Source: a virus
Reading direction: 5' to 3' (one strand)
DNA: 64,000 nucleotides
IMG/VR virus record: IMGVR_UViG_3300027963_000039
Below are positions 1-45,688 of this stretch, piece after piece (position 1 is the stretch's first letter; each line of letters opens with the position of its first letter). A program made the translations under genes and the position numbers. The notes under the pieces are model-generated. The model ran no database searches. It saw only the letters and a program-made list of their open reading frames with translations, and was not told where the DNA came from.

Positions 1-64
1 TGTTGTGAGTGATTCAGATATTTCTGGATTACAGAAAAGTTCTTTAACAATTTGTATCAGGTAT

Positions 65-140
65 GCACCTATCGTCTAACGGTTAGGACGGCGCCCTTTC
101 AAGGCGTAAACGGCGGGTTCGATTCCCCCTAGGTGTACCA
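65..140 (+). tRNA. tRNA-Glu(TTC)
   Basis: Acceptor GCACCTA/TAGGTGT, anticodon loop CT-TTC-AA, GTTCGATT T-loop, encoded CCA. Confidence 0.92.
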
Positions 141-355
141 TATTAAAACGCATTGGGTTACCAAGCCAGTAGGTACCTTAGCAGAGAATTATTCCTAGTG
201 ACGGCTAGGCTCTGCTAAGACTACATGAAGCCTCCCGAGGGTGCTGGAACAACTTGGCAAGTAATGTGTGCGATAGACAAGTCCGTGGACGGCACGGTAG
301 GGCAGGTTCAAAACTGTTATTTCTATCAAACATCCTAATGTGTTTTAATATGGTA
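136..355 (+). ncRNA. Unassigned highly structured RNA (element A) in tRNA array
   Basis: ~22-bp closing stem (TACCATATTAAAACGCATTGGG / CCTAATGTGTTTTAATATGGTA) enclosing nested stems such as CTTAGCAGAG/CTCTGCTAAG, CCTAG/CTAGG, CCAAG/CTTGG, GATAGA/TCTATC and CCGTG/CACGG. Confidence 0.6.
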
Positions 356-14478: not shown

Positions 14479-15183
14479 ATGAAAACATTTAAAACATTTA
14501 TTGTGGAATCAGACACAGAAGAAGATGACTCCAAAAAATTTCATTCATCCAATAAAATGAAAGATGAAATTGAATCTCATGCTAAAGGTCACACAGGTTG
14601 GTTGCGTAATTATAGTGATAAATCTAAACAAATGAATGATGCATTACATGACCATGCCGCTGGTAAAAAAATTGAAGATACTCAATTCAATGATCCTGAA
14701 AGGCATGAAAGAAATTTATCTTTTGCTCACGAAACTTCAAAAGTTTTAGCTAAACACCATACAAAATCCGACCATACTGTGTATTCTGGAATTCAACAGA
14801 AACACACTGAGATTTTTAAAAATAAAAATAAACCAACTAAACTACACCATCCTGGATTTATATCAACTTCTACGGATTTTAATCAAGCCACAAGGTTTAC
14901 AGGTGGTGGAAAAAATTCTAAAGAAGAACATCATGTGTTGAAAATTCATGTTCCAAAAGGAACACAAGGTGGTTCTATGAGTGGCAATACACACAGTCCT
15001 AAAGAAAAAGAAGTTCTTTTACAAAGGGGACATGATATTGAGGTACACCACAAACCAACAATCATAGACCATCCAAAGCATGGAAAAATTCATGTATGGA
15101 ATGCAAAAATTGTTGGACATAATCCAAAACCATTAAATGTTAAACCTGTAAAGGATGTTTTATATAAACATGAAATGAACTGA
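14479..15183 (+). CDS. ADP-ribosyltransferase (VIP2/C3/Alt-like), capsid-targeted
   Basis: VYSG, GFISTS, VLKIHVPKGT, EKEVLL motifs; N-terminus MKTFKTFIVE. Confidence 0.8.
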   Translation: MKTFKTFIVESDTEEDDSKKFHSSNKMKDEIESHAKGHTGWLRNYSDKSKQMNDALHDHAAGKKIEDTQFNDPERHERNLSFAHETSKVLAKHHTKSDHTVYSGIQQKHTEIFKNKNKPTKLHHPGFISTSTDFNQATRFTGGGKNSKEEHHVLKIHVPKGTQGGSMSGNTHSPKEKEVLLQRGHDIEVHHKPTIIDHPKHGKIHVWNAKIVGHNPKPLNVKPVKDVLYKHEMN

Positions 15184-21594: not shown

Positions 21595-21602
21595 TATAAA
21601 TA
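21595..21602 (+). promoter_or_regulatory. T4-type late promoter
   Basis: TATAAATA in intergenic region before 21661. Confidence 0.8.
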
Positions 21603-21660: not shown

Positions 21661-22851
21661 ATGTTAACATTCAAAACCTATTTAACGGAAGAAGCCGAAG
21701 AATCTTCCCAACTTAAACATATTCATCATGCTGAAGATAGGCCGTTGATGCATGGCCATGCTGGTTTTGAACACGCATATGGTGCTTTACAAAAAGCTCA
21801 CGAACACATTAAGGCTGGTCAAAAAAGTTCCAACCTGACGATGAAATATGATGGTTCTCCATCAATCGTTTTTGGTCATCATCCAAAAACCGGTAAATTC
21901 TTTGTTGCAACCAAATCAGCGTTCAATAAAAACCCAAAAATTAATTATACAGAAAAAGATGTTGAAAAGAATCACGGACATGCTCCTGGTCTTGCTAAAA
22001 CTCTTAAACATGCACTTAAGCACTTGCCGAAAGTAACACCAAAACACGGTGTTTATCAAGGTGACCTAATGCATCATGCAGAAACAAAGACCTTGCATGA
22101 AGAATATATTGCAGAAGCCAAAGGTGATGTTTCATTCACACCAAACACTATCACCTATACTGCAAAAGGCGAAACAGCAAAGAAGGTTAAAAACTCAAAA
22201 GTAGGTGTTGTCGTTCATCACAAATATGATGATGAAATGAAACACGCTTCACCTAAAGTTGACCATGAAAATTTCAAACAACATAAAGATGTTCATATTC
22301 ACGGTGCAGAACACGACACAAGCAAAGTAAAACATTCAGCTGAAAACGAATCAGGTTTTCACAAGCATATGTCTGCCGCCAAAGAAATACATGATACACA
22401 TGGCCACAAGATGTATGATTCCGTTCACCCAAAACACTCAGGTGAAACTGGCCACCTATCAACCTACATAAACAAGACCGTGCGACATGATGAGGTTCCA
22501 TCTGTAAAAGGATTTAAAGAACATCTGAAAGACGTACATGAAAAGGCAGCTTCTAAAGTTAAAACGGAAAAGGCCAAATCAGAAAAAACTGGTGAGGGCG
22601 CCAAACAAGTTGCCCACGTTGAGAAACACAAAGCACATTATGGTAATTTATTGACTATGCATCATCATTTACATCAAGCAAAGAATCACTTAGTTAAATC
22701 ATTAGAAACACATGAAGGTGATTATGAGCATCATATTGAAGGTAAGAAATCAAAGCCAGAAGGATTCGTTGTACATCACAACAATGAACCTACTAAGTTG
22801 GTCAACCGTGCAGAATTTGCCAAACAAAATCTGTTGAAGGTTAGAAAATGA
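21661..22851 (+). CDS. His-rich capsid-targeted protein with ATP-dependent ligase/capping-type nucleotidyltransferase motifs (DUF6267-like)
   Basis: TMKYDGS (KxDG), YQGDL, PEGFVV, KLV; N-terminus MLTFKTYLTE. Confidence 0.65.
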   Translation: MLTFKTYLTEEAEESSQLKHIHHAEDRPLMHGHAGFEHAYGALQKAHEHIKAGQKSSNLTMKYDGSPSIVFGHHPKTGKFFVATKSAFNKNPKINYTEKDVEKNHGHAPGLAKTLKHALKHLPKVTPKHGVYQGDLMHHAETKTLHEEYIAEAKGDVSFTPNTITYTAKGETAKKVKNSKVGVVVHHKYDDEMKHASPKVDHENFKQHKDVHIHGAEHDTSKVKHSAENESGFHKHMSAAKEIHDTHGHKMYDSVHPKHSGETGHLSTYINKTVRHDEVPSVKGFKEHLKDVHEKAASKVKTEKAKSEKTGEGAKQVAHVEKHKAHYGNLLTMHHHLHQAKNHLVKSLETHEGDYEHHIEGKKSKPEGFVVHHNNEPTKLVNRAEFAKQNLLKVRK

Positions 22852-23537
22852 AAACCTATAAACAATTAATTTGGGAAGTTACCGGACAAGGCGGCCGAGA
22901 TTATGAAACTGTTATCAATGACAAATTAAAAAAACACGGTAAAGCACATCCAGACGCAAAAACTGCTGGTTCATCTGCTGACGCTCCCGATGCAAAGTTT
23001 CACCATAACGGTCAAGAACATAATTTAGAAATCAAAAAAGATAAAGGCGCTATGTTTGGCCAAATTGAATTGCATCATAATGGAAAATCTTGGGATGTTT
23101 CAGAGAAGTCTAAGAAAAAATATCCAGAAACACATAAAGCAATACAAAAAAGTGGTTTCTTAGATAAAGTTAATAAGCATTGGGGCAAACCATCGGGCGA
23201 CTACCATAAAGATTTAAAGATGGGTAATGTATACCATGACCACCACAATGCTGATCCAATCAAATCACATTATGGAAAAGATAGAAAAACAAATTATGTA
23301 CAAATAGGTGGCGGCCATGGACTTTATCATACAGGTCACGATGCTGCAAAATTAGGTTCACCCGAATTACACGGAAGAACACAGATTAGAGCAAGAATGA
23401 AACCAAGAGGATATGATGCAAACGGTAAGAGAACATATGGCGCTCTTGCTGTAATGTCATTGAAAGGTGCAGATAAATCACATCACGATTTGGATGCTGA
23501 ACCACCAAAACCTAATGTTAAAGTTGGCAAGAAATGA
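22848..23537 (+). CDS. His-rich capsid-targeted PD-(D/E)XK nuclease-like protein
   Basis: YE...APDAKF...NLEIK motif; N-terminus MKTYKQLIWE. Confidence 0.6.
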   Translation: MKTYKQLIWEVTGQGGRDYETVINDKLKKHGKAHPDAKTAGSSADAPDAKFHHNGQEHNLEIKKDKGAMFGQIELHHNGKSWDVSEKSKKKYPETHKAIQKSGFLDKVNKHWGKPSGDYHKDLKMGNVYHDHHNADPIKSHYGKDRKTNYVQIGGGHGLYHTGHDAAKLGSPELHGRTQIRARMKPRGYDANGKRTYGALAVMSLKGADKSHHDLDAEPPKPNVKVGKK

Positions 23538-25360
23538 AATCTTTTTTAGATTTAATTAAAGAACAAGAAGAATATGAGAAGCATCATGTGATAACCTTTG
23601 GTCGCATGAATCCGCCTACGACCGGTCATTTAAAATTAATTAATAAAGTTAAAGAGATTGCCAAAAAACACAAGGCATCATATGAAATTATCGTTTCTCA
23701 TTCTCAAGACAGTAAGAAAAATCCATTAAGTTCTGAACAAAAAGTTAAACATTTAACTAGGTACATGGCTTCTCCAAAAATAGAAGAAGCTGTTTCCATC
23801 AAATCGTCAGTACATAAAATTGCATCTAAACCAAAAATTACTGCTGCATCAAAAGAAAAACCAACTATATTACATCACGCAGTAGCATCATATAAGAATG
23901 GAGTAACGCATCTCCACGTTGTTGTTGGATCGGATCGTGTTAAAGAAATGCATGATCTATTGCATAAGTATAATGGCGTTAAAGCTGGTCACGGAGAATA
24001 CCACTTTAAAAGTATAAAAATTCACTCAGCAGGTCATCGTGATCCTGATGCTGAAGGTACAGAGGGTATGTCCGGAAGTAAGATGCGTGAACATGCCAAA
24101 AATAAAGACTTTAAAGAATTTAGAAAAGGCGTTCCTTCCCATGTGTCGGATGAACATGCCAAAGAATTGATGCATGATACACGCAAAGGTATGGGTTTAC
24201 ATGAGAGCCATTATCATGGAATGTTCAAAGCTGTTTTTGTAACTGGTGGTCCTGGCTCTGGAAAAGATGTTGTTATTCGTGAATCTATTCCACTATCAAA
24301 CGCAGTTGAAATAAATTCAGTACAGGCTTTTGAATATCTTGCAGACAAACATACTTTGTCACAAAGAACCTCTGATTTCCGTAGAGAATCGATTCGTAAC
24401 CGTGGTCCATTAATTATCAACGGACCAGCAGATGATATCGAAAGAATTTCTCACATTAAAGAAGAACTAGAAGATTTAGGTTACGATACACTTATGGTGT
24501 TTGTTAACACAACGGATGAAGCCAGTAAAGAAAGAAATTCTAGACTAAAAAGAATGATGAGTGAGTCCATTAGACATGATAAATGGATAAAATCTCAGGA
24601 AAACAAAGACTTTTTCCTTGAAAGGTTCTCATTTTTCAAAGAAATCGATAACAATCAAACAATACAACAGATTGAAGAAGATATTACTGACACATATCAA
24701 TTTATAAATAGGTTCATAAATGATCAATTCTATAGTGATATAGCTACAGATTGGTTTACAAGACGTAATAAATCAAATATATTTGAGGATAAAAATGTTA
24801 AAAGCTATAGTCAATTTTCTAAAATTAAAACCTCGGGTAACCGAGCAGAAGGACCTAGTGATATCCCAGCCGACAATCGAGCAGGAGCCACAGACACCGG
24901 TGACGACATCCGTGGAAACACCTTCCCAAGAAAAAACACAAACAAAACCTACACGTTCAAAACCTACAGCGAAGAAAACAACCCCAAGCTCACCATCAAC
25001 CCGAGCCCCAAGGAAACAAACTTCTCCAAGGACAAAGAAAAAAGTAGATTAAAGAATAAAAGATTCTCTGATTCTCCTACACAAAATCAGAGAATGAGAA
25101 ATGTAACAGGTATAGGTCCAGAATTTGATACTCGCCAGCAGGGAACAGTATATCCCATGTCCGGTCTAGGCGATGTGACTTACCGAGAACAGAAAGAAAT
25201 TATTAGTTTTAGGAAATTTAGAGAAGCGATTGATGATCCAGGAGCTGTTGACATGGGAGTTGGTGGAACACTTAATGGATCAACAAATAAAGAGCCTATG
25301 CAAACTTATAAAGACTCGGATAGAAATATTAACATTCAAATCAAAAAGAAAAAGAAATAA
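23534..25360 (+). CDS. Cytidylyltransferase-like (HIGH/Rossmann NTase) fused to P-loop kinase
   Basis: TFGRMNPPTTGH, VVGSDR, MSGSKMR; second domain VTGGPGSGKD...MVFVNT...ERN. Confidence 0.8.
   Translation: MKSFLDLIKEQEEYEKHHVITFGRMNPPTTGHLKLINKVKEIAKKHKASYEIIVSHSQDSKKNPLSSEQKVKHLTRYMASPKIEEAVSIKSSVHKIASKPKITAASKEKPTILHHAVASYKNGVTHLHVVVGSDRVKEMHDLLHKYNGVKAGHGEYHFKSIKIHSAGHRDPDAEGTEGMSGSKMREHAKNKDFKEFRKGVPSHVSDEHAKELMHDTRKGMGLHESHYHGMFKAVFVTGGPGSGKDVVIRESIPLSNAVEINSVQAFEYLADKHTLSQRTSDFRRESIRNRGPLIINGPADDIERISHIKEELEDLGYDTLMVFVNTTDEASKERNSRLKRMMSESIRHDKWIKSQENKDFFLERFSFFKEIDNNQTIQQIEEDITDTYQFINRFINDQFYSDIATDWFTRRNKSNIFEDKNVKSYSQFSKIKTSGNRAEGPSDIPADNRAGATDTGDDIRGNTFPRKNTNKTYTFKTYSEENNPKLTINPSPKETNFSKDKEKSRLKNKRFSDSPTQNQRMRNVTGIGPEFDTRQQGTVYPMSGLGDVTYREQKEIISFRKFREAIDDPGAVDMGVGGTLNGSTNKEPMQTYKDSDRNINIQIKKKKK
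24703..24710 (+). promoter_or_regulatory. Internal T4-type late promoter
   Basis: TATAAATA within CDS 23534-25360, ~85 nt before the nested ATG. Confidence 0.55.
24795..25052 (+). CDS. Nested overlapping (+1 frame) Thr/Pro/Lys-rich small protein
   Basis: GAGGA RBS, ATG, internal late promoter, local C-rich compositional shift across most of the ORF. Confidence 0.6.
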   Translation: MLKAIVNFLKLKPRVTEQKDLVISQPTIEQEPQTPVTTSVETPSQEKTQTKPTRSKPTAKKTTPSSPSTRAPRKQTSPRTKKKVD

Positions 25361-44836: not shown

Positions 44837-45688
44837 ATGATTCTGGTAGATTTAAATCAGGTACTATTATCTGGCCTGATGGCACAGATTTCGAATCAAA
44901 AAGGTGTGAAGCTTGAAGAAAGCTTAGTTCGCCATATGATTCTAAACATTATCCGGATGCACGTTAGGAATTTCCGCAAGGACTATGGCGATATAGTCCT
45001 CTGTTGTGACAACAGGAAATACTGGCGTAAAGAATTCTTTCCTTTCTATAAAGCAAGCCGAAAGAAGAACCGTGAAAAATCCGACCTAGACTGGCATATG
45101 ATTTTTGATATGTTGGCAAAATTCAAGTTGGAACTGAAAGAAAATTTTCCCTACAAGGTTATCGATGTTGAAGGTGCAGAAGCTGATGATATCATTGGCA
45201 CATTAGTACCAATCTATGCACCACACGAAAAGATTTTAATTCTTTCTAGTGACGGTGACTTCCTACAACTACAGATGTATGGTGAAAATGTTAAACAATA
45301 CAATCCATCACAGAAGAAATACATTAAGTCCAACGAACCTCTTTTAGAATTAAAAGAGAAGATTATTCGTGGTGATAAAGGTGACGGTATACCAAACATT
45401 TTTTCACCATCAGATTGTTTTGTGCGTGAACTTAGACAAAAACCAATCACACAAAAAATAATTGAAAAATACCTAAATGAGTCAACCGATAAATGGGGTG
45501 ACGAATCAGCAATCACAGGATTCTCACGAAACGAAACCTTAATTGATCTAAGGATGATTCCATCTGAAATTAAACAGAAAATTATAAATAACTATAATGA
45601 AGTTAAACCTGCATCTAAACAACGGATGTTAAATTACTTTATCGAAAACAAACTAAAAAACCTAATGGAAGTGATTGAGGAATTCTAA
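44837..45688 (+). CDS. rnh: T4 RNase H (5'-3' exonuclease/FEN)
   Basis: ILVD, WRK...YKASR, EADD, SSDGDFLQL, GDKGDGIP. Confidence 0.95.
   Translation: MILVDLNQVLLSGLMAQISNQKGVKLEESLVRHMILNIIRMHVRNFRKDYGDIVLCCDNRKYWRKEFFPFYKASRKKNREKSDLDWHMIFDMLAKFKLELKENFPYKVIDVEGAEADDIIGTLVPIYAPHEKILILSSDGDFLQLQMYGENVKQYNPSQKKYIKSNEPLLELKEKIIRGDKGDGIPNIFSPSDCFVRELRQKPITQKIIEKYLNESTDKWGDESAITGFSRNETLIDLRMIPSEIKQKIINNYNEVKPASKQRMLNYFIENKLKNLMEVIEEF

Follow-up and report, generated by a model that had tools for sequence, protein, structure and literature searches.

Genes read out of frame inside a larger gene are known from several phages. Rz1, a proline-rich product, and phiX174 E, which lies inside gene D and combines an N-terminal membrane element with a basic tail, are both nested in the +1 frame with ribosome sites of their own, and nested +1 phage genes often serve lysis, as these two do. 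In large DNA phages, fully nested out-of-frame genes are rarely documented. T4 gene 30.3' (NP_049817.1) is annotated as an internal translation in a different frame within gene 30.3, and in phage ShiLan an HNH endonuclease is encoded out of frame in a methylase gene (PMC11855218); the phiX174 overlap is cited in a review of overprinted viral genes (PMC8227390). The arrangement is thus already known (T4 30.3', Rz1, phiX174 E, ShiLan), whereas the nested protein family described here, found by sequence comparison in freshwater T4-like phages, is itself new and well supported.

The new gene is, like T4 30.3' (75 aa), small, wholly embedded out of frame in a T4-type phage gene, and basic at its C terminus. 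It differs from 30.3' in its host gene and in its helix-spacer-tail anatomy, which gp30.3' lacks, and kinship between the two was rejected (hhalign probability, 0.05%). With lambda Rz/Rz1 and phiX174 E/D it shares a +1-frame nested position and a ribosome site of its own; unlike Rz1 and E, it has neither a lipoprotein signal nor a transmembrane helix, and its host is an enzyme rather than a spanin or a scaffold. As in ShiLan, the out-of-frame gene is concealed within a loop-like, read-through segment of an enzyme gene of the phage, but where ShiLan has a homing insertion with a nuclease, this gene encodes no nuclease, is apparently ancestral, and overlaps a host frame with conserved motifs of its own. 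Restricted distribution, disorder in both frames, and enrichment in C and proline are features shared with overprinted viral accessory genes, although the examples of disorder and accessory roles in the review come mainly from RNA and eukaryotic viruses (PMC8227390).

The window, the whole 64,000-nucleotide stretch of IMG/VR record IMGVR_UViG_3300027963_000039 analyzed here, is a T4-like phage segment with PHROG matches to DNA polymerase, primase, and ribonucleotide reductase. Its host gene encodes an NTase-kinase enzyme with a long tail (Table 1); in the AlphaFold model, residues 1-413 are folded and residues 414-608 have pLDDT values below 50. Foldseek searches with the host protein returned NadR, ATP sulfurylase-APS kinase, and NMP kinases, all at low TM-scores. 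Although predicted to be disordered, the tail (window positions 24839-25357) contains the strongly conserved motifs TYTFKTYSE, SNFSKDKE, VYPMSGLGDVTYRE, EAIDDPG, and NKEPMQ, which often end in Glu and are possibly prohead-protease processing sites or binding motifs. The homologue search found the host tail in no isolated phage. In HTVC008M, the kinase and NTase are separate genes with no nested-type ORF nearby, so that this phage does not serve as an outgroup for dating the two frames, either of which may be the older. At window positions 21661-22851 lies a DUF6267 protein with a KYDG motif resembling ligase motif I, which adjoins the NTase-kinase in relatives; the two may possibly form a nucleotide- or RNA-repair module.

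Table 1. Features of the host gene and the nested gene (window coordinates unless host residues are given)
Feature	Position	Strand	Basis or remark
Host gene, 608 aa	23534..25360	+	NTase, P-loop kinase-like domain, and predicted-disordered tail
Cytidylyltransferase-like NTase domain	host residues ~1-227		PF01467, E 2.6e-7; PHROG 3041/395
P-loop kinase-like domain	host residues 228-418		PHROG 12810/2071
Predicted-disordered host tail	host residues 414-608		AlphaFold pLDDT < 50
Intergenic TATAAATA heading the gene run with the host gene	21595..21602	+	putative role
TATAAATA, candidate internal late promoter, lineage-limited	24703..24710	+	TATAAATA 4/70, ATAAATA 14/70
Shine-Dalgarno GAGGA of nested gene	24785..24789	+	codon choice and spacing among homologues
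Nested +1-frame gene, 85 aa	24795..25052	+	kept in 62/70 distinct homologues
Amphipathic cationic N-terminal helix, consensus MLKxLLxLLK	24795..24833	+	model; moment; NNY codons 10% C
Thr/Ser/Pro/Gln/Glu-rich hydrophilic spacer, source of C-rich signal	24834..24974	+	NNY codons 88% C (spacer and tail)
Basic tail, motif TSxKTKKK	24975..25049	+	mean net charge +9.3, last 25 residues

An earlier note, made from the letters of the window, had described a nested gene in the NTase-kinase gene with its own late promoter and ribosome site. The elements it named are all present: TATAAATA at 24703-24710, GAGGA at 24785-24789, ATG at 24795, and an 85-codon +1-frame ORF, which closes with a TAG ending at 25052; its product ends in KKKVD and not, as claimed, in RAPRK. 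The ORF lies wholly inside positions 23534-25360 at an offset of +1 and spans host codons 421-507, within the disordered tail. The reported turn to C-rich, T-poor DNA is equally real, since host third positions in the window are 52% C and 9% T across the overlap; the corresponding values for the kinase part are 15% and 38%. C3 minus T3 reaches +0.43 there, compared with a window mean of -0.24 (sd, 0.11), and is the most extreme value among 2240 overlapping sliding windows; the next gene is far lower (+0.12). The open +1 frame of the window genome alone is not significant under synonymous recoding (P = 0.057), and TATAAATA occurs in the window 4 times against 6.3 expected. Both figures counsel caution about chance, and the case for the nested gene rests on its homologues and not on the window.

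Homologous loci were taken from viral and metagenome contigs and reduced to 70 representatives with less than 90% host identity, down to 49%. An automatic rule (AGGA-type site, ATG, open +1 frame) accepted 63 of the 70; L191 was a false call, leaving 62, and the other eight comprise L081, with an open but altered frame and a changed ribosome site, and seven without a nested start. The homologues are related by descent, and counts among them are not independent. In the 62, at 49 to 100% host identity, AGGA, ATG, amphipathic N-terminal helix, and basic tail are all kept, with products of 69 to 113 aa on the same three-part plan. Start signals and open frame are therefore conserved in diverged homologues, as a fully nested gene should have them, and the stops in the +1 frame or missing ribosome sites that would have counted against the gene were not encountered in these 62 of 70. 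In 56 of 63 homologues, 8 nt separate the AGGA from the ATG; the window has 5 nt between them. When the fetched loci, a redundant set of 269, were searched with a nested-protein profile, 251 gave a single match each; those without a match were the clades lacking a start, two short contigs, the detached tail in L019/L101, and T4 and HTVC008M, which served as controls. Length changes also occur: L148 has an in-frame deletion that shortens both frames, and L170 and L131 have frameshifts in or near the overlap; all of these changes may be assembly errors.

Codon usage at the ribosome site points the same way. The host Lys-Glu pair there is written AAG-GAR in 56 of 56 homologues, against 30 of 560 pairs elsewhere in the same genes; as those 56 were chosen for having a ribosome site, the more telling figure is the 62 of 70 unselected homologues that have it. 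Among all host homologues, AAG-GAR is avoided in Lys-Glu pairs outside the overlap (30/560) even though AAG accounts for 28% of Lys codons, a rarity that reflects strong avoidance of internal Shine-Dalgarno motifs. By crude estimates (Jukes-Cantor, pairwise, with 37 doubly silent sites), changes that are silent in the host frame and nonsilent in the nested frame reach 0.56 of the outside dS in 43 independent pairs (dSN/dS; 95% interval, 0.47 to 0.65), and changes that are silent in the nested frame and nonsilent in the host frame reach 0.36 in the same pairs (dNS/dS; 0.29 to 0.42). For the nested frame, dNN/dNS is 0.86 (0.71 to 1.03) overall and 0.70 in close pairs, a moderate, weaker constraint. 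Purifying selection on both frames, moderate on the nested side, is strongly supported by these sequence comparisons.

The two-fold NNY codons of the host locate this selection, because either T or C at the third position gives the same host residue but makes the nested residue hydrophobic or polar, respectively. They are 28% C in the kinase part, 10% C over the nested helix, 88% C (934/1066) over spacer and tail, and 26% C after the nested stop. These codons indicate selection for T over the hydrophobic part of the nested protein and for C over its polar part, which confirms and refines the proposal that the C-rich stretch stems from residue choice in the nested frame.

Seven homologues lacking a nested start at this locus, with the start segment deleted or altered, serve as natural controls and fall in about four places in a quick tree built from the flanks. 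In the loci without a start (L204 and L081 included), C3/T3 is 0.15/0.38, near background, compared with 0.48/0.11 in bearers; their NNY codons are 28% C, equal to background, and the hydrophobic fraction of the +1 frame is 0.41, against 0.11 in the spacer and tail of bearers. The 18 host consensus residues, in contrast, show the same retention (88%) in loci that have the nested gene and in those that lack it. Since the host motifs persist while the C bias is gone, the host frame is functional alone and the bias belongs to the nested gene. The scatter of absences over about four places suggests that the nested gene is ancestral and was lost several times, with absence judged at this locus in incomplete contigs (records 3 to 11% complete), so that a copy may lie elsewhere in those genomes. 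Three groups without a nested start (L073, L097/L204, and L102/L225) keep the whole enzyme. A further clade (L185, L191, L201, and P0014) has a 377-aa version with kinase and tail but without the NTase domain and the nested gene; it may be a paralogue.

Some phages have separated the two frames. Record G004 has a host gene that is interrupted within the overlap, and the tail of this gene forms a stand-alone 161-aa ORF about 5 kb away (L019:3932-4417). The nested gene stays with the front half of the host gene (L270:1127-3001, minus strand) and has acquired a new Lys/Pro/Thr-rich basic tail over unrelated host-frame sequence. The conserved host motif PKESNFSKDKE dictates part of the usual tail motif, and the rebuilt tail of L270, although a single case, answers the worry that the nested tail is a mere shadow of that motif. 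L019 had been considered a loss of the nested gene, a reading that was rejected because the gene is split and the nested ORF kept. In L264, 99% identical to the window, a TCA-to-TAA change puts a stop at host codon 414, immediately ahead of the ribosome site, and leaves the nested gene intact; the same change creates ATAAATA 27 nt upstream of the nested ATG (L264:2960-3000; window 24760-24795). L264 is a single assembly, and a real variant and an assembly effect are both possible. An apparent 242-aa fusion, P0023, was set aside as a probable chimera (836-bp contig; coverage, 1.06).

These observations bear on whether a second protein is made at all, or whether host sequence or a nucleotide-level signal yields the open frame and the C-rich DNA as by-products. 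The modest recoding probabilities (that of the window genome and a median P of 0.037 across homologues) would fit such by-products, as would the few loci without a start in which the +1 frame is nevertheless stop-free. They would not account for the background composition of no-start loci that have the same host motifs, for a T-to-C switch that follows the helix/spacer boundary of the +1 product, for the uniform codon choice at the Shine-Dalgarno site, or for a basic tail kept on new DNA in L270, and no RNA structure above chance was found at the nested start (z, 0.04). We consider this explanation very improbable. With conservation in 62 of 70 homologues, constraint on both frames, and loss of the C3 shift where the start is absent, the genuine dual coding put forward in the earlier note is strongly supported: the start signals, the open frame, the three-part anatomy, and the host frame are under selection as read from homologous sequences, an overlapping gene is very probably present, and we regard it as very likely that this gene is real and translated.

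The claim that the nested gene has its own late promoter fared less well. TATAAATA and ATAAATA follow a consensus that we take to be that of T4-type late promoters. ATAAATA is depleted in the window (10 copies against 27 expected) and precedes genes at 14479, 21661, and 28462, which is consistent with T4-type late promoters, and first-base variants of the consensus have been described (PMC2988020). The TATAAATA at 24703 lies 92 nt upstream of the nested start and overlaps host Ile-Asn codons. At the aligned site, ATAAATA is found in 14 of 70 homologues and TATAAATA in 4 of 70, compared with a single ATAAATA in the 71.5 kb of host codons farther upstream, and Ile is encoded by ATA in 16 of 28 cases at the site, against 294 of 1486 elsewhere; such an excess hints that an internal promoter functions in some lineages. 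However, ATAAATA occurs within 400 nt upstream in 13 of 63 nested-gene loci and is absent from that span in 50, and L073 and L081 have it at the site yet carry no intact nested gene. The motif is thus not conserved with, and only with, the nested gene; these counts speak weakly for a dedicated promoter and do not establish one. The candidate internal promoter is optional, and downstream genes may also be served by it; TATAAATA at 21595 is the likely default source of the nested-gene transcript. A second conserved promoter at Leu-Asn-Ile codons 20 to 45 nt upstream (TAAATA in 24/63) was rejected, being explained by host residues. The fourth TATAAATA of the window, at 45583-45590, sits in the 3' end of gene 44837-45688, some 100 nt ahead of where the following gene starts, and is possibly another internal late promoter.

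The nested protein itself is predicted to have a sole helix at residues 2-9 (pLDDT, ~85), with coil after it. Hydrophobic residues occupy positions 2, 5, 6, 8, and 9, and Lys occupies positions 3, 4, and 10; the hydrophobic moment is 0.59 (family mean, 0.61) and the mean hydrophobicity 0.22. Family mean net charges are +2.6 for the head (12 residues), -2.3 for the middle, and +9.3 for the tail (last 25 residues); the protein carries a net charge of +11. Prediction thus bears out the amphipathic N-terminal helix and basic disordered tail that had been proposed, and the overlap is probably tolerated because both products are predicted to be disordered there. With a predicted helix at residues 2-9 and a moment of ~0.6, the protein resembles the short N-terminal amphipathic helices of MinE (residues 2-12) and Escherichia coli MreB, which combine a hydrophobic face with Lys/Arg; the membrane helix of MinE has hydrophobic residues 3-8 and basic residues 10-12 (PMC5473585), and a nine-residue MreB helix is enough to bring GFP to the membrane (PMC3163269). 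The likeness is a pattern analogy involving a predicted helix only, and unlike in MinE and MreB, no folded domain follows it.

The helix is too short to span a membrane, and together with its MinE/MreB-like pattern this suggests a surface-seeking element; by this analogy, membrane binding of the helix is somewhat probable. We tentatively favor the view, to which we give slightly less than even weight, that the nested protein is an accessory late membrane tether made of a helix anchor, an arm, and a polyanion-grip tail. Ribosomes would start at the internal AGGA-ATG on late mRNA, transcribed by default from the promoter at 21595 and, in the lineage of the window, possibly also from TATAAATA at 24703, and would make the 85-residue +1 protein, with the host enzyme still being translated across this stretch. 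In the manner of the MinE and E. coli MreB helices, the cationic amphipathic helix would lie flat in the inner membrane on its cytoplasmic face, the hydrophilic spacer would serve as a flexible arm selected to stay polar, and the Lys/Pro/Thr-rich tail would grip a polyanion, most likely DNA or RNA, so that the target of the tether may be DNA, RNA, or anionic lipid. Such a tether would be useful but dispensable and would act late in infection.

The same helix could instead be a protein-binding motif for a host or phage protein, possibly the phage's own enzyme, with the tail adding affinity. The conservation data (62/70, both frames constrained, the NNY codons) fit this equally, binding to proteins is likewise seen for short amphipathic helices, a nested gene is bound to be inherited together with its enzyme, and in the clade of L185, L191, and L201 the nested gene and the NTase domain are both missing. 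The enzyme as partner is difficult to reconcile with the three groups that keep it whole without a nested start. Membrane anchors vary freely among hydrophobic residues, and specific interfaces usually do not; the nested helix varies freely among L, I, V, F, and W, which fits an anchor, and we judge the protein-binding explanation rather unlikely.

Late context, a cationic amphipathic helix, the high net charge, and the lysis roles of other nested +1 phage genes would also suit a membrane-damaging or lysis-accessory peptide, like the phiKT gp28 disruptin, which provides a precedent (10.1101/515445), or the embedded single-gene lysis proteins of small phages. Such a function seems decidedly unlikely for a helix of about 10 residues that is too short and, at its mean hydrophobicity, too polar to span the membrane, in a protein without a signal-peptide-like stretch, whose gene is absent at this locus in several clades. 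An embedded o-spanin of the Rz1 type was rejected: Cys occurs in the first 30 residues in only 8 of 62 products and is conserved in none of its positions, and the host is an NTase-kinase. The position of the gene within a late-gene run whose products start with leaders resembling the T4 capsid-targeting sequence, and its basic tail, raise the further prospect of a basic protein packaged into the virion with its neighbors as a DNA neutralization or ejection aid; as the nested N terminus has no leader pattern (no FxxF/LxE) and is more like a membrane-targeting helix, we find this improbable as well.

Database searches placed the nested protein in no Pfam or PHROG family, and no family or structure match pointed to a function. 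ESM Atlas returned three unnamed viral clusters at 0.88-0.90 with low recognition, a lead only. The profile searched against 1.84 billion representatives gave 14 matches, all to the same small family; in contexts L262-L267 the host frame runs over the nested gene, except in L264. The nested family was not found in the open-access literature on nested or overprinted phage genes and on the NTase-kinase enzyme. The expectation that gene callers miss the nested gene holds insofar as one of the two frames is usually reported, but some contigs call the nested gene and drop the host.

That pipelines report one of two frames explains how a gene common to most of a freshwater T4-like group came to be without a name or a family. 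The evidence for it is unusually clean owing to natural controls, namely about four clades without a start at background codon choice and rearranged phages that separate the frames, and the NNY test, with T over the helix and C over the spacer, offers a simple signature for finding other such genes. The most inclusive proposal, which we hold to be doubtful, is that a family existing only as the +1 frame of an enzyme tail, ancestral and widespread in freshwater T4-like phages, is a minimal membrane-to-nucleic-acid tether organizing late infection at the cell envelope, and that it has been lost repeatedly, has come apart from the host frame, and has had its tail rebuilt. If true, these events would form a natural series on the maintenance and undoing of dual coding, and the tether model, if true, would add a small membrane-organizing factor to T4-like late infection.
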